Shown here: piece by piece, positions 20,987 to 53,637 of the stretch | Position numbering within the stretch: position 1 is the first letter of the stretch | How the letters are laid out: each line of letters starts with the position of its first letter | Program-made: the position numbers and the translations under genes | The notes under the pieces: model-generated | Database searches by the model: none | Told to the model about the DNA's origin: nothing | What the model saw: the letters and a program-made list of their open reading frames with translations, nothing else | Virus record (IMG/VR): IMGVR_UViG_3300021168_000016 | Coordinates: 61,422 to 125,421 of that record | Strand: one strand, 5' to 3' | Source of the DNA: a virus | DNA length: 64,000 nt

Positions 20987-21001
20987 AGTAGCGGTATATA
21001 T
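20987..21001 (+). promoter_or_regulatory. Phage-conserved promoter motif AGTAGCGGTATATA
   Basis: Identical 14-mer also at 35581 and 40083, each just upstream of an operon. Confidence 0.65.
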
Positions 21002-21008
21002 AAAATAT

Positions 21009-21479
21009 ATGGTCTACTTCATTCAAAGTGCCTGCCCAAAAGGGCTTATCAAGATAGGTAATTCGGATAAACCCTTAACCAGGTTGAAAGAACTTCAAAC
21101 AGCTAATGGTTACAAACTGACATTCCTGAAGATTATTCAGGGAGGTTATCAGGAAGAATTAATCACAAAGAAGAGATTCAGGCAGTTCCGTGTTTTGGAG
21201 GGCGGAACCGAGTGGTTTAAACCAGAAAAGGAACTACTCGATTACATCAAATCACTGGTATTAGAACAGGCATTTGAAATGCCTACTACTTACCAAGAAA
21301 TACCTGGAAAGTATGATCCGAGTATTATATCACAAACAGCACTACTTTCTTTGTCTAGTCGAAGACAACTTTCAAAGAGGACTGAGATAAGCAATGAACA
21401 ACTTCTTTCAACGGTGAAGAAGCAAGAATTACCTTCACGAATTGATTTTTCGTTACAAATCAAACTAAGGAGAATATGA
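21009..21479 (+). CDS. GIY-YIG nuclease (T5orf172/MUG113 type)
   Basis: VYFIQ...LIKIG.S..P..RLKELQTAN...EWFKP motifs. Confidence 0.85.
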   Translation: MVYFIQSACPKGLIKIGNSDKPLTRLKELQTANGYKLTFLKIIQGGYQEELITKKRFRQFRVLEGGTEWFKPEKELLDYIKSLVLEQAFEMPTTYQEIPGKYDPSIISQTALLSLSSRRQLSKRTEISNEQLLSTVKKQELPSRIDFSLQIKLRRI

Positions 21480-22134: not shown

Positions 22135-22440
22135 GATTCGATGCGATGCAATACGCTGAAATATGATAGGATTTGATGGAATATAATCTAATCGGATTAG
22201 ATTTGATAAGATACGAAGTATTTTTATACTGGAATTATGATAGGATCAGATCAAATCTGATGGAATCAAATCGGATAAAATAAGATCGAATGTGATCTGA
22301 GAGAATGAGATTTAATTTGATAAGATATGAAGTATTTTTATACTGGAATTATCATGCGATGAGATAAGATGTAATATAATCTGATACCATCAGCCAAGAT
22401 CTGTTTTGATGGGACCGGATGCGATATGATACGAGATTTT
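22135..22440 (+). ncRNA. Pentamer-coded guide array (RAT-NN), 3 units
   Basis: Strict 5-nt phase, mostly GAT/AAT + variable NN (16, 18 and 16 pentamers); units separated by repeated GATAAGATAYGAAGTATTTTTATACTGGAATTAT (22205-22238, 22319-22352) containing an AGTAT-TTTT-ATACT hairpin. Confidence 0.75.
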
Positions 22441-22459
22441 TCACTTTCGGAGAATCTCT

Positions 22460-41306: not shown

Positions 41307-42029
41307 TTGGCTTCTGGCGACCGGTATCTATATATGAGAAAGAGATCCCACTTGATCCGACCGAAGTCCCTAAAGAAAAGCAGCAGATTTGAAGTTAATC
41401 TTTTAGAGGAGCAACTTCGAGAGGTTCTGTACTTTAGCGAAAAGCCATCACGTGAGATGGCTTTAGCGGCGGTGAGTATTCTTCTTGGCTATATTGGAGA
41501 AGATCCAAACAGAGAGGGTTTGTTAAAGACACCTGAACGGGTGGTGAGGGCCCTTGAGTCAGAATGGTGTATTGGGTACAACAGAAAGTATATTCAACAG
41601 CAGACATTATCTATCCTTGGAGCACAGTTTGCAGATGGTGCAGAGAATTATGATACGATGATTGTCGTAAAGGATATTTCCTTCCATTCGATGTGCGAAC
41701 ATCACATGGCTTTGTTTAGCGGCATTGTAAGCATTGGCTATATCCCATCGCAAGGAGGACGTATACTAGGGTTGTCTAAGCTAGCTAGGATAGTCAATAT
41801 GTTCTCCCGGCGCTTGCAGGTGCAGGAGAGGCTAACCACACAGATTGCAGACTTCATTAACATTCACTGTAAGCCACTCGGCGTAGGCGTCATTGTACGA
41901 GCTAAGCACTCATGTATGGGTTCACGTGGTGTCCACCAGCCTAACTCAGAGGCTGTTACATCAGCACTACGCGGACAGATGTTAGATCAACAGGACGTCC
42001 GCCAAGAATTCCTTTCCCTTGTGAGGTAA
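41307..42029 (+). CDS. folE: GTP cyclohydrolase I (true start probably downstream)
   Basis: REGLLKTPERV, SMCEHH, GLSKLAR, RRLQVQERLT, HSCMGSRGV. Confidence 0.95.
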   Translation: MASGDRYLYMRKRSHLIRPKSLKKSSRFEVNLLEEQLREVLYFSEKPSREMALAAVSILLGYIGEDPNREGLLKTPERVVRALESEWCIGYNRKYIQQQTLSILGAQFADGAENYDTMIVVKDISFHSMCEHHMALFSGIVSIGYIPSQGGRILGLSKLARIVNMFSRRLQVQERLTTQIADFINIHCKPLGVGVIVRAKHSCMGSRGVHQPNSEAVTSALRGQMLDQQDVRQEFLSLVR

Positions 42030-42305
42030 AATCATGAAAAAGAGATACATCGAAGAACAGTGGAACGAGTTCCGTAGGAGCGTTCTATCGAAAGACGCTC
42101 CTCAGATTCAAATAGATGAGATGCGGAAAGCCTTCTTCGCTGGAGTAGTAGCATTATTCGGCCATGTGCTGGGTAACCTTTCTGAAGGCAATGATGTTAA
42201 AGAGCAGGATCTACAAATGATGGCTAGCATCCATGAGGAGCTCGAGGAATTCAGAGATGAAATAGCTGTAATCATTGCATCTCAATCCAGGAAAGTAGGA
42301 AAGAC

Positions 42306-43364
42306 TTGAAGCCGAAGATCAGATTGATGGTAGATTCAGGCGCGTATAGCTCCTGGACGCAAAATAAGCCGATCTCCCTTCCTGAATACACAGAGTTCGT
42401 TCTAAAGAATCAAGAGGTAATAGATTCTGTAGTTAACCTTGATGTAATACAACCCGGCTCGCCTGAGACTGCGGCTGCGGCAGGAAGAGAAAACTTCTTA
42501 AAGATGAGGGAGGCTGGTGTCATTAGCCTCCCTGTCTTCCACGCTCGTGAGAGTCTAAAGTGGTTCGATCTTATGCTGGAGGAATGTCCTTACATTGGGA
42601 TATCAGCCACTAGTCTGGTTAGTCCTAGAGAGCAGCAATCATTCCTTGATCTAGCATTCCATTATGGAACAGATAGTAAAGGCTATCCAATTGCTAAGTA
42701 TCATGCATTCGGAGATACAGCTCCAAAGTCCCTGTTGTCATATCCATGGTTTAGTTGTGATAGCGCCACCTGGATGATATCAGGATGCAGAGCAGGCTCT
42801 GTCAAGCTGAAAGGGAAGACATATAGACTACGTTCTAAAGTAGTCTCTGATACTAATTACATTTCAGATCACGATGCTCTTCCTCAGAAAGAGGCTTGGC
42901 AAAACGAATTCAGAATGCTGGGATTAGATCCTGATGCTGTGATGTCTGTTAAGACTACACCTTCCCAACTGGCTATGATTAGATCCTATCTTGTAGCTAG
43001 TGACATCTTGAAGCTCCAAGAACAGACAAGAGGAGTAACACGCTTTAAGAAGCCAGGAGCACTCATCATCAATAAGAAGCAGGAGGCTGGTGGAATAGAA
43101 AGAGAAGGTCCTATCCGTGTCATATTTGTGATTAGTCCATCGGCAGCGTTTATGAACTTCCCAGTTATATGTGCTCTTGGGATCAAGGATATCTTGGCGT
43201 CTTACTTTTATATTGCGAAGGAAAAACCTAGATTTTGGCACGAACGATTAGTCCCCTTTCTACACGACCCAATGGCTTTCATTAAAAGTGATATGAAAAT
43301 GTCTGCTTTCTATTCTAAACTTCAGGAGGTGTTACTAAAAAAGGAATCGACGATTTTAGTATAA
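42306..43364 (+). CDS. DpdA/TGT-like 7-deazaguanine DNA transglycosylase
   Basis: VDSGAYS, NLDVI, PVFH, YHAFG, YPWFSCDSATW motifs; lies within the que cluster. Confidence 0.75.
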   Translation: MKPKIRLMVDSGAYSSWTQNKPISLPEYTEFVLKNQEVIDSVVNLDVIQPGSPETAAAAGRENFLKMREAGVISLPVFHARESLKWFDLMLEECPYIGISATSLVSPREQQSFLDLAFHYGTDSKGYPIAKYHAFGDTAPKSLLSYPWFSCDSATWMISGCRAGSVKLKGKTYRLRSKVVSDTNYISDHDALPQKEAWQNEFRMLGLDPDAVMSVKTTPSQLAMIRSYLVASDILKLQEQTRGVTRFKKPGALIINKKQEAGGIEREGPIRVIFVISPSAAFMNFPVICALGIKDILASYFYIAKEKPRFWHERLVPFLHDPMAFIKSDMKMSAFYSKLQEVLLKKESTILV

Positions 43365-43650
43365 GATTTGACATGGCCTGACCCGGTTAGGTAGGGTAAG
43401 GTTAGCTCCGGTGACACCAGGTTAGGTGCGGCTGGCAAGGATTAAGATTTGACACGGTGAGGTGTGGTCGCGTATGGCGGGGTAAGGTTTATCTTGGCGA
43501 GGTAAGGTTAGGCTGGCTAGGTGAGGTTCGTTGCGGTACGGTTAGCCACACTTTGGCTAGGTAGGGTAGGACGCGGTTAGGCTGACGTGGTGGAGCAGGG
43601 CACGGCTTGAAATGGCTCGGTGTGGTAGGGTTGGGCGTGGACCGGCAAGG
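43362..43650 (+). ncRNA. Pentamer-coded guide array (GGY-NN), 4 units
   Basis: 5-nt phase, mostly GGT/GGC + NN, 12-13 pentamers per unit; leader TAAGATTTGACA (43362, 43443), junction GGCT, terminal GGCAAGG (43434, 43644). Confidence 0.75.
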
Positions 43651-45205: not shown

Positions 45206-47706
45206 TGGGCTTAATTTCTTACGATGGCTGTGACAATTGTCCCATTCGAAAGACTTGGCCACTGCTTCATTCTCCGAAGATGGCATTCACAGAACCTACT
45301 GTTCCTGTAGATATTAATCTACTGTGTTTAGGGGAAGCGCCTGGACAAGAAGAAGATGCTGTGGGTGAGCAGTTCGTCGGTAAAACCGGAAAATATCTTA
45401 GAGAACGTATCCCTCGAGAGTGGAGAGATAAACTATACTTTCAGAATGCAGTTCGCTGTCGTCCTACCGATACACAGGAGAAGAATAGAAATCCTTCTAT
45501 TACAGAGATCAGTTGCTGCAGTACATATCTCAAGGAGGATCTTCTTACTATTAGACCAAACGCTATCTTGGGAGTAGGTAGTATACCTCTTTCTAACTTC
45601 TGGCCTGATCTAATCATCTCAAAGATCAGGGGTATTCCTTTCCCAATTCAGTTCACAGACAAAACATCATGTTGGTACTACCCGACGTTCCACCCTTCAT
45701 ATGTTTCTAGGCTAGAGAGGAGAGATGAAGATGGCAGCTACACGAATTATGCTGAACCAGTCTTTAGAAACGATCTTAGGATCTTCTTTGAGCAGGTTAG
45801 AACGAAGTTCGCTACTCGTCCTAGGATTTATTCTCCTCCTAAACAGATTGATTATCCTAAGAGTGCAGAAGAGGCTTGGAAGCTATTCCAGCAGTTAGAA
45901 GAACCTTATGCAATCGACTTTGAAACATTTAAGCTCCGTCCATACATGCGTGATGCGTTACTCCTTACCTGTGGATGTTCAGATGGCAAAACGACATTTG
46001 CTTTCCCTGTGATGTGGCCGGGAGACATGAATCCTTGGGGTAAATCTTTTTTGGCCAAAATGGCGAGGACGAAGAAGAAATGGATTGCTCAGTCCTCGTC
46101 CATGGAATTAACCTGGATGCGGTATATAACTCAGGAGCATGATCACATATTTGAAGATACAGAGATACTGGCTAGGTTAAATCACAATAGGAAAGGTCTA
46201 GGATCGCTTGACATACTCTCTAAAGTCTATTTAGGATTTGATATCAAGGCATTGAACCCTAACATGGATAAGAATAGGATGAGGGAATATCCTTTACCTA
46301 AAGTCCTGAAGTATAATGCTCTAGATGCTTGGGCTACCGTTGAAATCTTTCATCTACTTGGAGCTGAATTAGCTCAGAAGCCTAATCAGTTAGAGAACTA
46401 TTATCGTTCTATCGATACAGTTTCCAGTTGTACAGATATGGAATTGAAAGGATTGGATGTAGATATCAGTGTGGCTGAGGAGATGCAGAAAGTGCTCTAC
46501 AAGCAGTCAGTTGAGCAAGGTAGGCAGGCTAAAGCCATCCCTGAAGTAAGGGCATTTGAGAAGAAGGAAAGTAGGATATTTAGTCTTACAGCACCGGATG
46601 ATGTAGCAGCTGTCTTAGTTAGATACTGTGGAGTAGATTTAGAACAAGATCATGAGACTAAGCATTACTCAACGAAAGAAGAAGTACTCACACCCTTATT
46701 AGGGTTACATCCTTTAGTCGATCTGACACTAGAGTCGCGTGGTACAGAGAAGCTTCTCTCTACATACATACTTCCTATCCTATCAGGTGAAATCATAGCT
46801 GTAGATGGTAAGATTCATTCCCAGTATCGAGTTGTACATGTTTCAACTTTCCGATTATCGTCAGAAGCGCCAAACATGCAGAACTGGCCTACCCGGAGAA
46901 ATCATGAGATCAGACGAATGATTAAAGCGCCTCCTGGGTATGTAATAGTCAAGTTTGACTACGCAGGACTGGAAGTACGAGTCTTGTGTATGGCAAGCAG
47001 GGATCAAAATCTGATGAACGATATCCTAGACGCACCAAAGAATCTAGGACAGAAAGATATCCATTGGTACTGGCTTAAGAGGATTTTACAACTCTATCCA
47101 AAGTATATGGATCGACTGGCTGATAAGACAGGCGAGAAAGAAGAACAAGCAATACTTGATGGCGGTAGAACTATCATCAAAACAGACTTTGTCTTTTCTA
47201 GCTTCTACGGATCTAAAGCAGGAGCTATCGCCAACAAGACGCTTATTCCTGTCGATGTACTTAAGGAACTCCACCTAGAATTCTGGAATCGTTACGCTGC
47301 TACTAGGAAATGGATTGATGGACAAACTAGATTCTATCAGCAGCATGGCTACGTACAATCACTTACAGGCAGGATGAGGAATGAAGTATTGCCCGGACAA
47401 GAAATTGTGAACTCACCGATTCAGGGTACAGGAGCTGAAATCGTATTGGAAGCACAGAACGCTCTCCATAATAGAGCCATGCAGGAAGATATTAACTTTC
47501 TCCCTCGAATGAACGTGCATGACGACATAACATTTTTCCTACCAGACACCAGTGACCTTGAACGGTATATACAAGTGATAGGAGCAGACATGACAATGGC
47601 TAGATTCCCATTCGTTACGGTACCACTGGCTGTAGAATGTTCATTGGGATACAATTGGGCTGATACCGAAAAGGTTAGCGTTATAACAGGAGCAGCATAT
47701 GCCTGA
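45205..47706 (+). CDS. polA: Family A DNA polymerase with N-terminal family-4 UDG-like domain
   Basis: GEAPGQEED..G..FVG, NAVRCRP, FHPSY (UDG); IDFET and YNALD (exonuclease); RLSSEAPNMQN, DYAGLEVR, NSPIQGTGA, VHDD. Confidence 0.92.
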   Translation: MGLISYDGCDNCPIRKTWPLLHSPKMAFTEPTVPVDINLLCLGEAPGQEEDAVGEQFVGKTGKYLRERIPREWRDKLYFQNAVRCRPTDTQEKNRNPSITEISCCSTYLKEDLLTIRPNAILGVGSIPLSNFWPDLIISKIRGIPFPIQFTDKTSCWYYPTFHPSYVSRLERRDEDGSYTNYAEPVFRNDLRIFFEQVRTKFATRPRIYSPPKQIDYPKSAEEAWKLFQQLEEPYAIDFETFKLRPYMRDALLLTCGCSDGKTTFAFPVMWPGDMNPWGKSFLAKMARTKKKWIAQSSSMELTWMRYITQEHDHIFEDTEILARLNHNRKGLGSLDILSKVYLGFDIKALNPNMDKNRMREYPLPKVLKYNALDAWATVEIFHLLGAELAQKPNQLENYYRSIDTVSSCTDMELKGLDVDISVAEEMQKVLYKQSVEQGRQAKAIPEVRAFEKKESRIFSLTAPDDVAAVLVRYCGVDLEQDHETKHYSTKEEVLTPLLGLHPLVDLTLESRGTEKLLSTYILPILSGEIIAVDGKIHSQYRVVHVSTFRLSSEAPNMQNWPTRRNHEIRRMIKAPPGYVIVKFDYAGLEVRVLCMASRDQNLMNDILDAPKNLGQKDIHWYWLKRILQLYPKYMDRLADKTGEKEEQAILDGGRTIIKTDFVFSSFYGSKAGAIANKTLIPVDVLKELHLEFWNRYAATRKWIDGQTRFYQQHGYVQSLTGRMRNEVLPGQEIVNSPIQGTGAEIVLEAQNALHNRAMQEDINFLPRMNVHDDITFFLPDTSDLERYIQVIGADMTMARFPFVTVPLAVECSLGYNWADTEKVSVITGAAYA

Positions 47707-48634
47707 ATCTACACCTCTTATTACAAAGTATCGACCGATTGCCTTCTCTGAAGTTATCGGTAATACTGAGATTATTAAAGGATTAACGGATGCTGTAAGA
47801 GGACCAAATTGTCCTCACGGATTCTTATTCACAGGATCAGCTGGGATTGGCAAGACAACTTTAGCTAGAATTATTGCTAAAGAAATCAATGCCTCTATCA
47901 TAGAAATCGATGCTGCCTCCAACTCCGGAGTCGATGATATGCGTCTGGTAGTTGAAGCTTCAGGATTTAGTTCTATCACACTTCAGCCAAACAGATTGTA
48001 TATCATCGATGAAGCTCACAATCTCAGCTCTAAGGCTTGGCAACCTTTACTTGCTCTTATCGAAAATGCTCCTAAGTCAGTCTTTGTAGCTTTATGTACA
48101 ACTGATCCAAAAAACATCCCTACTACAATCATATCACGTTGCCATCCTGTTCCATTACGTCCTCTGAAATCTCGAGAGATAGAAGATTTAGTTGTCGTTG
48201 TAGCTGAACTTGAAGGATGGCCTCTACATGGAGATATTATCATGCCTTTAGTTATGTCTGCTGAAGGCAGTGCAAGGAGAGCTTTATCTAATCTACAAGC
48301 ATGCCACCTAGCACAATCAAGAGAAGAACTTTCTAAACTGCTACTAAAAGTTGAGTCAGAAGATGATCCGGCCATTAAGCTATGCAAGTATCTGATGACA
48401 GGAAAGCGTGAATGGAGACAGATCCAATCTTATCTAATTGAAGTTGATGATCATGATAGAGCATTACAGGACATGACTCGATACCTAGTTGGGGCAATGG
48501 GGCGCAGCGAAGAAAGCCAAGCACACGAACTCTGGCTACTCGTGCAAAAGTTTACAGCTCCTTCGATGTGGGATAGAAAGGTGCAACTTTATGCTGCTGT
48601 CGGGAATTCTCTTTGGGGGCAAATCCCCTTTTAA
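47699..48634 (+). CDS. Clamp loader, DnaX/RFC-like AAA+ ATPase
   Basis: KYRP..F.EVIG, GSAGIGKTT, EIDAASNSGVDD, IIDEAH, SRC. Confidence 0.9.
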   Translation: MPESTPLITKYRPIAFSEVIGNTEIIKGLTDAVRGPNCPHGFLFTGSAGIGKTTLARIIAKEINASIIEIDAASNSGVDDMRLVVEASGFSSITLQPNRLYIIDEAHNLSSKAWQPLLALIENAPKSVFVALCTTDPKNIPTTIISRCHPVPLRPLKSREIEDLVVVVAELEGWPLHGDIIMPLVMSAEGSARRALSNLQACHLAQSREELSKLLLKVESEDDPAIKLCKYLMTGKREWRQIQSYLIEVDDHDRALQDMTRYLVGAMGRSEESQAHELWLLVQKFTAPSMWDRKVQLYAAVGNSLWGQIPF

Positions 48635-48639
48635 GTTTA

Positions 48640-48648
48640 CGGTATAAT
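48640..48648 (+). promoter_or_regulatory. CGGTATAAT -10 element upstream of the single guide
   Basis: Matches the CGGTATA core of the conserved promoter motif. Confidence 0.5.
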
Positions 48649-48660
48649 ACTTATGTAAGC

Positions 48661-48747
48661 GGAAATGACGCGGCTAGGTTGGGCGCTGCGTGGACTGGTA
48701 TGGTAAGGTCCGGCGCGGTTGGGTATGGTAAGGTTAGGCAGGCAAGG
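48661..48747 (+). ncRNA. Single GGY-NN guide unit
   Basis: GAC-start, 14 pentamers, GGCAGGCAAGG end, as in the 43.4-kb array. Confidence 0.75.
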
Positions 48748-48759
48748 AAAGGTAAATCA

Positions 48760-49227
48760 ATGGGGGAAGATCGAGAACCAACTTTCAAGGCTGAAAAGTA
48801 CCGCTGGTTGAAGCAGAGAGTTCGACTTGATCTTCTCTACATTGACGAAGATATTCAGGAACTACCTATTCTTCTTCAGGAAGCAGGAGAAAACACAGCA
48901 GTAGCACTAGAGCGAAGAGAATCAACGAAGGCAGATCTTGAGACACAGGAAGCAGTAACAGCAAATAGGCTTAGGCGGGATGAGTACAATGGAAAGAAGT
49001 CAGAGGCTGCTATCGCAAGCATGATACCGCTTGATGAAGACTACCAAAGGATCCAAAAAGATCTAAGCGAAGCTAGACTAGATGCTTCACTCTGGATGAA
49101 TTTGATGGATACGTTACGCTCTAAATCGTCTCTAGTCAGAGCTTCAGCAGATCTAGTACAAGCAGGGTTTATTTCTACCGTTCACTACACCGAAAAGAGA
49201 AAACGAGACTTGAGAACGCCGTCATGA
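48760..49227 (+). CDS. UvsY-like recombination mediator
   Basis: Helical protein with SEAAIASMI..DEDY; located between clamp loader and SSB. Confidence 0.55.
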   Translation: MGEDREPTFKAEKYRWLKQRVRLDLLYIDEDIQELPILLQEAGENTAVALERRESTKADLETQEAVTANRLRRDEYNGKKSEAAIASMIPLDEDYQRIQKDLSEARLDASLWMNLMDTLRSKSSLVRASADLVQAGFISTVHYTEKRKRDLRTPS

Positions 49228-49354
49228 ACTTTTGGATTTATATCTTGTCTGTACCTTTGATCCTAGTATTCTTGTACCTCGTAACAAGGATGGTAACGTC
49301 TGCGTATTTCAAATCTAAGAGTGAATATCTCAAAAAGAAGTGGGAGGAAATGAA

Positions 49355-50401
49355 ATGAGTAGCTTCAAATATGCGCCTCGCAGCAACGAGGCATGGGCAA
49401 AGCGTGAGAAGGGAAGCACCTTCGAGGGCTTTATCAAAGATCAGTACATGGGTTTCTCACCTAAGAAGGATAACTGGATTCGCTTCCTTCCTCCGACATG
49501 GGATAATCCATCTCACTATGGTATCGATATTTGGGTTCATTATTCTGTTGGACCTGAGAACGCAAACGTACTCTGTCTCTATAAGATGACAGGGAAGCCA
49601 TGTCCTGTCTGCGAAGCACATGCAGTCGCTGAAGCTGCGGGACGTGAAGATGCAAACAATCTAAAGGCAACTCGTCGAGTGCTTGTCTGGGTTGTCAATA
49701 GGAAAGAAGAGAAGGATAGGAAGCCGCAATATTGGGCACAACCCCAAACCGTAGATAAAGAGGTCACTAAGATCTGTCGTGATAGGGTTACAGGACAGCT
49801 TTACTACATCGACCATCCGGATCAAGGATATGATGTAACCTTTGATAAAGATGGTGAAGGGATGACCACTAAGTACAACGGCTTCCAAATCGCTAGGCAG
49901 GCATCATCTGTTGAAGATGTCTATCTAGACTATGCCTTGGCCAATCCACTGCCTGAAATCTTGCAGTGGCGATCGTATGATGAAGTTAAAGACTTGTTTG
50001 AAGGCACAGCCGGACCCACTACTCAGCTTCATCCGGGACAGGCATCACATCCTATAGCTGAGGTGCCGAAACCAATTGCTACAGGGCCGGTGGTTGTACC
50101 AACTCCTTTGCCCCAACCGCCACCGCCCCAAGTCAACACAGTTGTATTACCTCCACCTGCTGCTCAGTTCTGCGCCTTAGAAGTTGAGTACCAAGGTAAC
50201 ATGTTCGGATGTAATTACGCACCCGGACATTCAGGAGATCATCACTATCAACGGTACCTGCGTCAGGCACAGCCACAAGCGCCTGTTGTTCCACCCCATG
50301 TAGCTTCTCCGGGTAATTCAGGAGTAGTACCCCAAACAACACAATCAGCAGCTGATCGTGCTGCTGGATTGAGAGATCGGTTTAAGACCGGACCGAGGTA
50401 A
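49355..50401 (+). CDS. ssDNA-binding protein (T4 gp32-like)
   Basis: NWIRFLPP, VHY, CPVCE, DPDQGYD-like segment; Pro-rich tail. Confidence 0.8.
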   Translation: MSSFKYAPRSNEAWAKREKGSTFEGFIKDQYMGFSPKKDNWIRFLPPTWDNPSHYGIDIWVHYSVGPENANVLCLYKMTGKPCPVCEAHAVAEAAGREDANNLKATRRVLVWVVNRKEEKDRKPQYWAQPQTVDKEVTKICRDRVTGQLYYIDHPDQGYDVTFDKDGEGMTTKYNGFQIARQASSVEDVYLDYALANPLPEILQWRSYDEVKDLFEGTAGPTTQLHPGQASHPIAEVPKPIATGPVVVPTPLPQPPPPQVNTVVLPPPAAQFCALEVEYQGNMFGCNYAPGHSGDHHYQRYLRQAQPQAPVVPPHVASPGNSGVVPQTTQSAADRAAGLRDRFKTGPR

Positions 50402-50403
50402 AT

Positions 50404-51954
50404 ATGTTAGCAGTTAATGAGATCTACGGACCAGTAGCACAGGGAGAAGGGGCATCCTCTGGGATGCCCTGTATCTTCCTTCGGCTATCCGGATGTAACC
50501 TAGCCTGTATTTGGTGTTTCATAGGCTATACAAAGATTGCTACGCCTAAAGGATCAAGGAACATCAAGGACATTCGCGTTGGAGACTTAGTACTAAGCTC
50601 TGACGGAAGAATCATAGTCCCAAAGAAAGTAACGAAAATCTTTAAAAGAGAAACTTCTAAAGATGAAATCGTTAGAGTTTTAGTTGAGGGCGATCCGGGT
50701 GTGGTAAATAATAGAGTCTACTGTACTAAGAATCATGAATTCTCAACAAATAGAGGTTGGGTTTCTGCGCAAGATTTAAAGCCCGGTGATGAAATTGAAT
50801 TTGTAGATAACATCAACTGGCATATGAAAAATGATAACCCCTCCTGTAGACCTGAAGCTAAGCAACGATTATCGGAAATGGGTAAACGAATACATACCGG
50901 TAGAAGGGCATCTACAGAGACACGACTACGGTTAAGAGCATCTAAGTTGGGACCCAAGAATCCGCGGTATACCGGAACCTGTAATGATCCGGGATATTTA
51001 ACTCTTTGGTATAGAACAAGGAGGGATGTTCTAAAGAGGGATGGGTACAAATGTCAGAACTGCGGATCGACAGAAAACCTAGAAGTTCATCATAGTATTC
51101 CCTTCAAGATTTCTAAAAGTCATGATCCAGGTATTCTAATTACCCTCTGTAGATCATGTCATCGACAAGCCGAAAGACAGTTTCTTCACAACGGTAAGAA
51201 AGTTGTATCAGTAACACCTGTCAGCGTGAAGCAAGCAGCAAGATTCAATGGCAATAGTAAGGTAATTGAGGTCTACAATCTAGAAGTAGAGGATAACCAT
51301 ACCTACTTCGCCAATAGTTTTCTTGTGCATAATTGCGATACCCCTTACACATGGAATTGGGGAGGGACTAAGTTCGAGCATCCTGACAAGTATGATCCTA
51401 AACTTGAAATGCACACGATGTCTGTACAAGAGGTTAGTGATGAGATTTACGAGAAATCAGAAGGAATTAGGCTTCTAGTTATTTCAGGAGGCGAGCCGAT
51501 GCTACAGCAGTCAGCATTGATACACTTTCTGAGGAAGCTAAAAGATGAGAATCCCAACTGGTGGGTAGAAGTTGAGACTAATGGGACAGTTGAACCTCAT
51601 GATGAATTCATTACGTTGATAAATCAGTTCAACTGCTCTCCAAAGCTATCTAACGCAGGAAAGGATAACCCTCGTAGCAAGAGATTAAAGTTTCATGTAC
51701 TAAAGAAGATTAAGAATTCAGGTAAAGGTACATTCAAGTTTGTGATCCAATCAGAAATTGATCTAGAGGAGATGAGAGAGATTCTCCATATGGCTGAAAT
51801 ACCGCCAAGTAGTGTTTGGCTCATGCCGGAAGGACGTACTCGTGAGGAGCAGTTAGCTAGACAAGAGCAGGTTGAGCGGATGACTAAGGAACATGGCTAC
51901 AACTTTAGTCCCAGACTACACATCCTTGAACATGATAATAAGCGAGCTGTGTGA
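50404..51954 (+). CDS. queE: 7-carboxy-7-deazaguanine synthase with intein
   Basis: QGEG..SG.P..F.RLSGCNLACIW|intein|CDTPY, ISGGEPMLQ, ETNGT, CSPKL, PRLH. Confidence 0.93.
   Translation: MLAVNEIYGPVAQGEGASSGMPCIFLRLSGCNLACIWCFIGYTKIATPKGSRNIKDIRVGDLVLSSDGRIIVPKKVTKIFKRETSKDEIVRVLVEGDPGVVNNRVYCTKNHEFSTNRGWVSAQDLKPGDEIEFVDNINWHMKNDNPSCRPEAKQRLSEMGKRIHTGRRASTETRLRLRASKLGPKNPRYTGTCNDPGYLTLWYRTRRDVLKRDGYKCQNCGSTENLEVHHSIPFKISKSHDPGILITLCRSCHRQAERQFLHNGKKVVSVTPVSVKQAARFNGNSKVIEVYNLEVEDNHTYFANSFLVHNCDTPYTWNWGGTKFEHPDKYDPKLEMHTMSVQEVSDEIYEKSEGIRLLVISGGEPMLQQSALIHFLRKLKDENPNWWVEVETNGTVEPHDEFITLINQFNCSPKLSNAGKDNPRSKRLKFHVLKKIKNSGKGTFKFVIQSEIDLEEMREILHMAEIPPSSVWLMPEGRTREEQLARQEQVERMTKEHGYNFSPRLHILEHDNKRAV
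50515..51333 (+). mobile_element. Intein with HNH endonuclease in QueE
   Basis: Starts CFIGYTKI; CTKNHEF block B; RDGYKCQNCG...LEVHH...LCRSCH; ends VYNLEVEDNHTYFANSFLVHN/C. Confidence 0.92.
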
Positions 51955-52220: not shown

Positions 52221-53637
52221 ATCGCCTGAGAAGTCTACTATAGAATGTGTCCCTGTTGAGATGGCAGAACTCAGGAATGCCGTAGCGAGATATTCTTGTC
52301 CTGAGTTCACTAGCCTTTGTCTGGCTGGTGATACACTAGTCGATGTATGTTGTAATGAAACAGAGTACCCAAAAGGTATTCCCATACAGCAGCTTGTAGG
52401 CACTGAAGGTTATGTATTCTCTTTTGATCCTTCAATGCGTCAACCGGTTGTCAAGAAATATTTCGATGTAAGAAAAACACAGGAAAATGTCCCTGTAGTT
52501 AAAGTTGAAATGCTGGCACTTCGAGGGACAAATACAATGGGAAGGAAATCAGAAACTGTAACAATACGTCTGACACCTGATCATTTAGTTCTTGTCATTA
52601 GGGGGTGGAATGGATACGAATGGGTTCCCGCAGGGAAACTAAAAATAGGAGACAGGATTTTCTCAGACCAACGTGGCAGAGGAGATACAATTAGATGTCA
52701 TTCAAGACATTCTCTAATTGCCCAATGCTTAATAGGAAGGAAACTTCGATCTGATGAAGATGCACATCACATCAATACTAATCATTTTGACAATACACCG
52801 ATAAATATAGAGGTACTAGCAGATGGAGAGCACTCTCGATTACATAGAAGTATGCAATATGGTTACGACGATATTATCGATGTGAATAAACTTGTTAAAC
52901 TTTATGAATCAAACCCAGAAATTTCTATCATTGATATTGCACAGGAATACAGATGCGATCCTTCAACAATTGAATCGAGACTTAAAGGAAGGACAAGAAT
53001 TAAATCGCAAGCTGAAATACTCCTAGCAAGGCGTTCTCGGGAACTTGAAAACGCTATGGAAGAATGTTCTGATTTGTATCAGGAGGGCTATACGACCAGA
53101 GAAATTAGTATGTACTTTGAAGTACATGATACAACTATATTGCAGTGGCTTAGAAAAAAAGGAATACAACTACGTGAATCAAATAGGAGTAGGGCATTAA
53201 GAAAGTCACTCGACTTACCGTCGTTAAATCATAAAGTTATTAGCGTTACTAGTGACGGTACTTCAGATGTTTACAATATGGAAGTTGAAGACACTGAATG
53301 TTTCTTCGCTAATGAAATCGTAGTTCACAATTGTCCTGTTACTGGACAGCCTGACTATGCAAAGCTATATATTGATGTAATTCCCAACATGTGGCTACCT
53401 GAATCAAAGAGCTTAAAGTTATTCCTAGGTGCCTTCAGACAGCACGGCGGCTTTCATGAAGAAACCACTGTCTATATTGGGACAAGGCTGCATGATGCTT
53501 GCCATCCCACATGGATCAGGATTGCAGGACTATGGTTTCCTCGCGGCGGCATCGGGATTGATTGTTTCTGGGAAAAAGGCCACAAAGGAACTACCTACGT
53601 ACCTACATTAAGGCAGAGAAATTATGAGGGAAGATAA
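52180..53637 (+). CDS. queF: PreQ0 reductase (type I) with intein
   Basis: PEFTSL|intein|[28 protein letters not shown]. Confidence 0.9.
52318..53331 (+). mobile_element. Intein with HNH endonuclease in QueF
   Basis: Starts CLAGDTLV; LTPDH; [21 protein letters not shown]; HTH repeats; ends [22 protein letters not shown]. Confidence 0.92.

Follow-up and report, generated by a model that had tools for sequence, protein, structure and literature searches.

We analysed a 64,000-nucleotide stretch of DNA, referred to as the window, which forms the second half of the 125,421-bp IMG/VR virus record IMGVR_UViG_3300021168_000016. Unless genome coordinates are named, positions are those of the window. 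The subject of this report is a short tract of pentameric repeats, U2, that lies directly ahead of a 155-amino-acid gene of this phage, and the relation between the two. U2 consists of GGYNN units, and the other two GGYNN sites of the genome are named U1 and U3. Repeats of this type are known from VIPR systems, in which the guide RNA (vrRNA) contains 9-16 YNNGG repeats plus a tail and the protein partner, Vipr, is a minimal RAMP (10.64898/2026.04.26.720920; this and the other VIPR reports, bioRxiv preprints of 2026, are cited for those parts of their text that were available). This kind of system is already known, and U2 is a natural example of it.

The guide tract and the adjacent gene

U2 occupies an intergenic site between a clamp-loader gene (47699-48634) and the 155-amino-acid gene (48760-49227, plus strand), which belongs to the replication module and has no known family. 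In the published register, the plus-strand tract comprises 14 YNNGG units (48669-48738), a number within the published range, with the GG present in 13 of the 14 units and the Y likewise in 13. An earlier reading of the letters alone (the original prediction) had described 14 pentamers at 48667-48736, whose final two letters make up a list of dinucleotides. Both the pentamers and the dinucleotides proved right; the published register shifts the tract to 48669-48738, behind a 5′ handle (GAAATGAC, 48662-48669, plus strand). According to an alignment, the GGYNN units of our phage share this handle with L148, a metagenome contig of 2773 bp from a related soil phage. The handles of GGYNN units read GAAATGAC or TTGACA followed by RYGG, and the exact handle-plus-repeat pattern is found in the genome only at its three GGYNN array sites. 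At its 3′ end, U2 continues into phase-shifted GG units (GGCAGGCAAGG..., 48739-48759, plus strand), which extend into the ribosome-binding region of the 155-amino-acid gene. The short end GGCWGGCAAGG is shared by U2 and the U1 units.

A search of the window for GG phased every five bases gave 31 pattern matches, compared with 1.25 expected. They are located at 43375-43650, at 48672-48743 and at one isolated site at 52602. The GGYNN arrays are not reported by Tandem Repeats Finder, Rfam at gathering thresholds gave no match in the window, and no RNA run is listed as holding this stretch.

Two potential transcription signals on the plus strand precede U2. A terminator-like hairpin identified by a consensus scan (48615-48630) lies at the end of the clamp-loader gene and presumably acts as a terminator; its position is conserved in L148. 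It is followed by a promoter-like motif (TTTACGGTATAAT, 48636-48649), likewise conserved in L148, which is likely to be the start signal of the guide transcript. Because a generic sigma-70 scan gave no promoter at U2, this role of TTTACGGTATAAT is only presumed. With up to one mismatch allowed, the motif TTWNCGGTATAW occurs 12 times in the window (3.1 expected). In the form (G)TAGCGGTATAT or TTTACGGTATAA, the promoter-like motif was seen on the plus strand ahead of gene blocks at 20988, 35582, 40084, 44078 and 48636, and it is common to the operon of the vipr gene (20988) and to U2 (48636).

The 155-amino-acid gene would represent the self allele of the presumed target of the guide. It had been labelled UvsY-like, a name that is unsupported by any sequence or profile similarity. 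The protein belongs to no Pfam family and has PHROGs hits of unknown function only, a profile built from nine sequences found no PDB chain at E ≤ 1, and tblastn against 50,697 phage records returned only hypothetical proteins (E = 0.02). Eight homologues share 69-74% identity with it. In JGI metagenomes, the gene has one relative, L148. A search of IMG/VR with the clamp loader yielded one distant locus (L001), which is without arrays.

Gapped matches between guides and nearby genes

Laid on the DNA with one base skipped per dinucleotide, the reverse complement of U2 agrees with positions 49150-49191 in 8 of 14 dinucleotides and 21 of 28 letters, as the original prediction had stated. This footprint lies on the plus strand within the 155-amino-acid gene and covers codons 131-144 in frame, the skipped base being codon position 3 of the open reading frame throughout; one dinucleotide midway is fully mismatched. 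The match had been called antisense, which holds for the pairing orientation if one strand of the DNA is meant, not the mRNA.

Over all offsets and both strands of the window, 21/28 is the top score of U2 (runner-up 18), and the same is true for the entire 125-kb genome (runner-up 19). The original prediction had named shuffled guides that match neighbouring genes equally often as grounds for its refutation. Within the neighbour gene, 2000 shuffles of the dinucleotide order and 2000 of the single letters all stayed below 21, with a maximum of 19. In the whole window, a score of 21 was reached by 0.35% of the dinucleotide-order and 0.4% of the single-letter shuffles, and in the whole genome by 1 of 300 and 3 of 200 shuffles in two runs. 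Skips of 0, 2 and 3 bases were unremarkable, with 43%, 97% and 9.5% of the shuffles scoring equally well. Only the one-base skip yields outliers, and it does so for U2, for U3 and for the guide of L148 alike. These results demonstrate that the match between U2 and its neighbour is real and beyond chance.

The related contig L148 carries an allele whose product is 74% identical to the 155-amino-acid protein. Ahead of it lie the promoter-like motif and the handle also seen at U2 and, at the same position, a 14-unit GGYNN tract; on the contig, this orthologous guide occupies positions 1940-2020 and the allele positions 2021-2476. Between U2 and the L148 guide, 32 of 42 scaffold letters are identical, compared with 10 of 28 NN letters. 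The L148 guide finds a footprint on the allele of our phage at 48841-48882 (plus strand, codons 28-41), where 25 of 28 read letters agree in frame and spell the peptide IDEDIQELPILLQE. None of 1000 shuffles reached 25 (maximum 23). On its own allele (IDQDIMELPILLQE), the same guide scores 21/28, and the differences include a synonymous change of a leucine codon from CTA to TTA. VIPR targets are called at an NN match of at least 80%, and in the available text no self match reached 80% (10.64898/2026.04.26.720920). By this measure, the L148 guide has 89% on the allele of our phage, above the threshold, and 75% on itself. The last ~45 codons of the L148 allele, exactly the reading site of U2, have diverged much more strongly than the remainder of the gene, which looks like escape or replacement.

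We also compared the contigs of two soil runs with the region 48560-49300. One of the runs, X1, may be the source sample and is therefore not independent with respect to our phage. It contains a second contig at a depth of 8, compared with 16 for our phage, with 85% identity over 48754-49096. At its upstream loose end, this contig has exactly the letters of the 3′ end of the L148 guide, and the region corresponding to 49097-49232, which includes the U2 footprint, is replaced by 139 unlike letters. Based on the loose end and the divergent gene end, an L148-like contig occurs in the run that holds this phage.

U3 provides a further pair. It is a solitary GGYNN unit with a handle at genome positions 49927-50011 on the minus strand, 11.4 kb before the start of the window. 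It adjoins the 3′ end of an 88-amino-acid gene (genome 50016-50282, minus strand) and is followed by a terminator-like hairpin. Compared with codon positions 1 and 2 of residues 7-20 of this gene, its dinucleotides match in the sense orientation in 21 of 28 letters, and in 20 of 24 over the first twelve codons (local shuffle P = 0.00025). U3 decodes to SLLELGYTVEPGK. With the peptide SLLELGYTIEPGK, the homologue P0013 permits a score of up to 25/26, whereas the neighbouring self gene reads SLLGLGFTIEPGH and scores 21/26. The case for a rival allele as target thus appears clearer for U3 than for U2. The 88-amino-acid gene has no relatives in IMG/VR.

GGYNN arrays are present in at least 120 IMG/VR stretches. 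To a set of 370 GGYNN units of at most 40 pentamers, taken from about 80 other IMG/VR loci of at least 3 kb, two bulk tests were applied. The first one, based on 60 shuffles and scoring each mismatch as -2 over whole loci, gave no enrichment at any skip, with 3.0% of the units at p ≤ 0.05 for the one-base skip. In the second one, restricted to ±1.2 kb and with a milder penalty, 7 of the 370 units fell at P ≤ 0.01 and 13 units at P ≤ 0.02 under the one-base skip, compared with 1 and 3 units, respectively, for the two-base-skip control. With 8000 shuffles, the seven units obtained P values of 0.00012-0.0024; about 0.9 such units were expected. The matches occur in both orientations. For 11 of the 13 units at p ≤ 0.02, the skipped base is position 3 of the longest open frame on the same strand, a count that lacks a shuffled-guide baseline and hence is no test. 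The near-matches of the seven units (L068, L115, L063, L085, L101, L102 and L137) are in frame and within 1.2 kb; in L137, about 0.4 kb separate the near-match from the vipr gene downstream of it. Taken together, the near-match relation is real, employs a one-base skip, is indifferent to the strand and is found near a small minority of units. This weak but significant excess of guide-self-allele pairs in other phages suggests that guides located beside the self allele of their target may recur across phages.

The vipr gene, its neighbourhood and the other arrays

The only vipr gene found in the genome (21481-22134, plus strand) encodes a Cas7-like RAMP of 217 amino acids. By blastp, its product matches array-adjacent open reading frames in 15 loci, and a profile derived from it identifies array-adjacent open reading frames in 66 of the 120 GGYNN loci listed, with no second member in this genome. 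At other loci, vipr-like open reading frames are 0-707 nt away from the GGYNN arrays. Vipr of this phage keeps all five invariant columns of the family. Its AlphaFold2 model (pLDDT 85.4, pTM 0.81) retrieves type VII Cas7, Csm3 and Cmr subunits in Foldseek searches, with a best E value of 2.8e-7, obtained for type VII Cas7, and 48 matches at E ≤ 0.001. A tblastn search of the 50,697 phage records gave no match for vipr.

Directly 5′ of vipr lies a gene for a 156-amino-acid protein with a T5orf172/MUG113 domain (21009-21479, plus strand; Pfam PF13455, 1.4e-6, and PF10544, 6.1e-5). We take this domain to be of the GIY-YIG kind from its clan assignment, and the protein is possibly a nuclease. From its position, the gene is a candidate VIPR accessory (vap) gene; no homologue of it is found beside the Vipr genes of the other loci examined. 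It follows the promoter-like motif at 20988.

Right after the vipr stop codon begins an array with a non-canonical scaffold (22135-22459, plus strand). It consists of three units of 16, 18 and 16 pentamers of the form RAT-NN, in which the fixed triplet is GAT or AAT, not GGY. The first two units share a 24-nt terminal tail and the third ends in a hairpin. Using the one-base skip, none of them has a significant match in its own genome (best local P 0.044). Non-canonical scaffolds have been described with the triplets GAC, CAC, WGT and TGH (10.64898/2026.10.21.760802), and RAT does not appear in the available text of that report. In a scan of IMG/VR for RAT-NN arrays, 0 of the 118 stretches listed carried an open reading frame of the Vipr family; most of these stretches are AT-rich simple repeats in giant-virus bins.

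U1 comprises four to five GGYNN units in tandem (43375-43650, plus strand) and is located between a dpdA-like gene and replication genes. Phase shifts occur at its GGCTG/GGCAG junctions, and its units have no significant match in their own genome (shuffle P 0.34-0.99). The dpdA-like transglycosylase gene (PHROGs, E 2.4e-35) belongs to a possible set for 7-deazaguanine DNA modification at 41307-43364 and 50404-51954. Further candidates, recognised by eye from the translations, are a GTP cyclohydrolase I-like open reading frame and a QueE-like radical-SAM open reading frame with an intein/HNH-like insert. Modified guanines could conceivably affect VIPR binding to the DNA of this phage.

Rival alleles as candidate targets and relation to known systems

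The characterised VIPR systems are those of the Escherichia phage SUSP1 and of a prophage of Pseudomonas fulva, type II (10.64898/2026.04.26.720920, 10.64898/2026.04.26.720927). The Cas7-like Vipr polymerises on the RNA, holds GGY and exposes NN, and the exposed NN letters pair with one strand of double-stranded DNA, every third target base being flipped out, so that transcription is silenced (10.64898/2026.04.26.720920, 10.64898/2026.04.26.720927). Within a protomer, the thumb displaces G1, G2 and Y3 of the guide, but only x3 of the target (10.64898/2026.04.26.720927). This "1 nt skip rule" places the skip bases overwhelmingly on wobble positions; targets are found on both strands, and the natural ones are competing phages, satellites and prophages (10.64898/2026.04.26.720920). 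The original prediction had proposed a guide against the homologous allele of a related phage in which skipping of the wobble base blocks synonymous escape. The latter idea agrees with what is published for VIPR (10.64898/2026.10.15.759431), where self-match scores are also reported to be below non-self scores. Since a gapped, wobble-skipping guide against competitors has already been described, the proposed principle is the VIPR mechanism.

Based on the locus, the scores and this background, we propose that 48669-48738 is probably a vrRNA gene directed against the alleles of the adjacent gene that rival phages carry, whereas divergence would make the phage's own allele immune. Vipr would polymerise on the U2 RNA and expose the NN dinucleotides, which would pair with the alleles of the 155-amino-acid gene in rival phages, skip the wobble bases and silence transcription. 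The own allele, matching in 75% of the read letters, would be the diverged, immune copy. We favour rival alleles as targets because the L148 guide prefers the allele of our phage (25/28) over its own (21/28) and because U3 spells the peptide of a homologue better than that of its own neighbour. The self score of 75% seen in all three pairs is about what would be expected from a guide that perfectly matches a moderately diverged orthologue. Because guide and immune allele lie side by side, recombination between co-infecting relatives would be unable to separate them.

Several observations weigh against this interpretation. While the L148 guide and U3 support the part of the original prediction that invoked the allele of a related phage, the cognate allele of U2 itself was not found: a pattern search of IMG/VR for the exact 13-dinucleotide target of U2 gave no match, relatives of the 155-amino-acid gene are found neither in IMG/VR nor in GTDB genome contigs, the best score of U2 on L148 is 15/28, and no allele was found that fits U2 better than self. 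At the peptide level, the eight homologues allow maxima of 23-24/28 (82-86%) and minima of 18-21/28, compared with 21/28 for self, so that some homologous alleles may fit U2 better than the own one. At the third codon of the footprint, U2 is closer to the majority allele (Ile) than to self (Val), whereas at codons 11-12 it is closer to self. This mixed fit suggests that the true target of U2 could be an unsampled allele near this phage's own lineage. Only 7 of the 370 units have a near-match nearby, and therefore a guide beside the self allele is a minority arrangement. Between U2 and the 155-amino-acid gene, neither a terminator nor a structured 3′ tail is found. Finally, U2 is 26.5 kb away from vipr and the array next to vipr is RAT-NN, not GGY-NN; given this distance and this neighbour, loading of U2 by this Vipr is only presumed. 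U2 thus differs from guide arrays that adjoin vipr and counts as a solo vrRNA, for which the published working definition is a nearest Vipr more than 20 kb away (10.64898/2026.10.15.759431). The additional idea that the own gene avoids its guide by swapping six-fold-degenerate codons does not hold in general: the self score of U2 is at the minimum of what its peptide allows (21, range 21-24) and that of U3 near the maximum (21, range 17-22).

How probable are other explanations? Autoregulation, in which Vipr loaded with U2 binds its own gene at 49150-49191 despite seven mismatched letters and tunes its transcription, would account for the facts that the best genomic match of U2 is its own neighbour, that no better-fitting allele was found, and that the tract sits without a terminator of its own in the leader of the gene, guide and gene probably being co-transcribed. 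We nevertheless regard it as unlikely, since the self match is 75% with a fully mismatched dinucleotide in the middle of the footprint, and the published threshold is at least 80%, with no self match above it in the available text (10.64898/2026.04.26.720920). Moreover, disturbed NN pairing abolished silencing (10.64898/2026.04.26.720920), the available text of 10.64898/2026.04.26.720927 offers no data on mismatch tolerance, and the L148 guide clearly favours the non-self allele (25 vs 21/28). Also improbable is a scenario in which Vipr of this phage reads RAT-NN, and U1 to U3 are GGY-NN solo guides that the GGY-reading Vipr of rivals would load and turn against rival alleles. The RAT-NN array after vipr is in line with it, as are the distances of all GGY units (21-33 kb, beyond the 20 kb of the solo definition) and the published solo vrRNAs, which can redirect the Vipr of another element (10.64898/2026.10.15.759431). 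However, the family of this Vipr adjoins GGY arrays in 66 other loci and its five invariant columns are kept, and the handle and arrangement shared with L148 suggest a shared cognate protein. The lack of a Vipr homologue beside any of the 118 RAT-NN stretches listed is weak evidence either way, the list consisting mostly of AT-rich simple repeats.

Two further explanations question the information content of the tract. U2 could be a vrRNA with an unrelated true target, its 21/28 match to the neighbour being a lucky one among many decodings. Indeed, 0.3-1.5% of shuffled guides reach 21/28 somewhere in the genome, several masks, registers and units were open to choice in the original prediction, and the four to five U1 units show no significant genomic match. 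But the match of U2 is in frame and in the adjacent gene, where 0 of 4000 shuffles reach its score, other skip lengths fail, and independent cases of the same relation are provided by U3 (local P 0.00025) and the L148 guide (0/1000), which makes a coincidence highly improbable. Even less credible is that the tract is not a guide but a GG-repeat leader element, such as a TRAP- or CsrA-like site, a ribosome standby site or an RNA G-quadruplex, in which the NN letters are irrelevant. The tract does lie in the gene leader, with its final GG units extending over part of the ribosome-binding region. However, the NN letters carry in-frame information on neighbouring genes, the phage encodes a Cas7-like Vipr whose family is found together with such arrays at 66 loci, and Rfam gave no match. 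Both chance and a non-guide leader element are thus effectively excluded. A replication origin or primase sites, as well as a five-base decoding or RNA editing of a hidden coding sequence, had also been considered and were dropped given the in-frame matches and the VIPR literature.

Beyond the preferred reading of U2 as a guide against rival alleles, we tentatively raise the possibility that guide and immune allele, no more than 100 nt apart, act as one selfish cassette, by which the rival's copy of the gene would be silenced or, together with the T5orf172-type protein, cut. A self-targeting genome could then not arise by recombination, and a rival would become immune only by taking over the whole cassette. 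In the same soil, sister phages would carry mutually directed cassettes at the same locus. The anatomy of such a cassette is present in three guide-gene pairs, namely U2, U3 and L148.

With U2, a VIPR guide is described in an uncultured soil phage of 125 kb, remote from the systems of Enterobacteria and Pseudomonas that have been investigated to date, and the one-base-skip code was recovered here from sequence statistics, independently of the VIPR papers. The target class would be particular, as the guides would be directed against rival versions of ordinary phage genes, including a gene of the replication module, rather than against the satellites, prophage regulators or vipr genes named in the available VIPR texts. 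The same applies to the linkage, as the guide is found directly beside the phage's own mismatched allele in three pairs. This arrangement was not met in the available parts of the VIPR texts, nor were RAT-NN scaffolds, though supplementary tables may hold either of them; the word "allele" is absent from 10.64898/2026.10.15.759431. The L148-type guide and our phage form a candidate rival pair for VIPR-driven allele divergence in nature. The coexistence of GGY and RAT scaffolds with one vipr gene raises the question of scaffold specificity.

Compared with the published VIPR systems, the likeness extends to the GGY/NN pentamers, the Cas7-like Vipr, the one-base skip on the codon wobble, targets on either DNA strand and, presumably, genes of competing phages as targets. 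The vrRNA tail of type II forms a pseudoknot, and other VIPR types differ in this respect (10.64898/2026.04.26.720920). In our phage, no pseudoknot tail was seen, the array adjacent to vipr is RAT-NN with no GGY array there, the neighbour of vipr is a T5orf172-domain gene, and U2 is placed 26.5 kb away from vipr, within the leader of a replication-module gene.

Solo or orphan vrRNAs are known from satellites (F5) and VIPR-null, SUSP1-like phages, and one such guide sits where vipr-vap1, its target in rivals, was deleted (10.64898/2026.10.15.759431). They resemble U2 in being single guides far from or without vipr, judging from the L148 guide also in self scores below non-self scores, in wobble-aligned footprints and in the location of the guide at the locus of its target. 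In contrast to them, this phage keeps vipr, and the presumed target is a conserved replication-module gene instead of vipr, vrRNAs or a satellite. Self immunity would be achieved by divergence of a retained allele here and, as far as the available text goes, by deletion there.

The effector backbones of Class 1 CRISPR systems, the Cas7/Csm3 filaments, share with VIPR the fold predicted for the 217-amino-acid protein and a guide filament with periodically flipped bases. VIPR differs by its five-base guide period with three letters sequestered and by gapped pairing, and it is phage-borne, with neither a CRISPR array nor adaptation genes.

In T-even phages, free-standing homing endonucleases (Seg and Mob) bring about marker exclusion of rival alleles, their own copy being protected by polymorphisms. 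The analogy would lie in a selfish element beside a gene that attacks the rival's allele of this nearby gene, and a domain presumably of the GIY-YIG kind is encoded beside vipr. On the other hand, any cleavage or gene conversion would be hypothetical in our phage, published type II VIPR silences rather than cuts according to the available text, and recognition by U2 would be RNA-guided. If true, the cassette would be the RNA-guided counterpart of marker exclusion by homing endonucleases, with a core gene of the replication module as its object.

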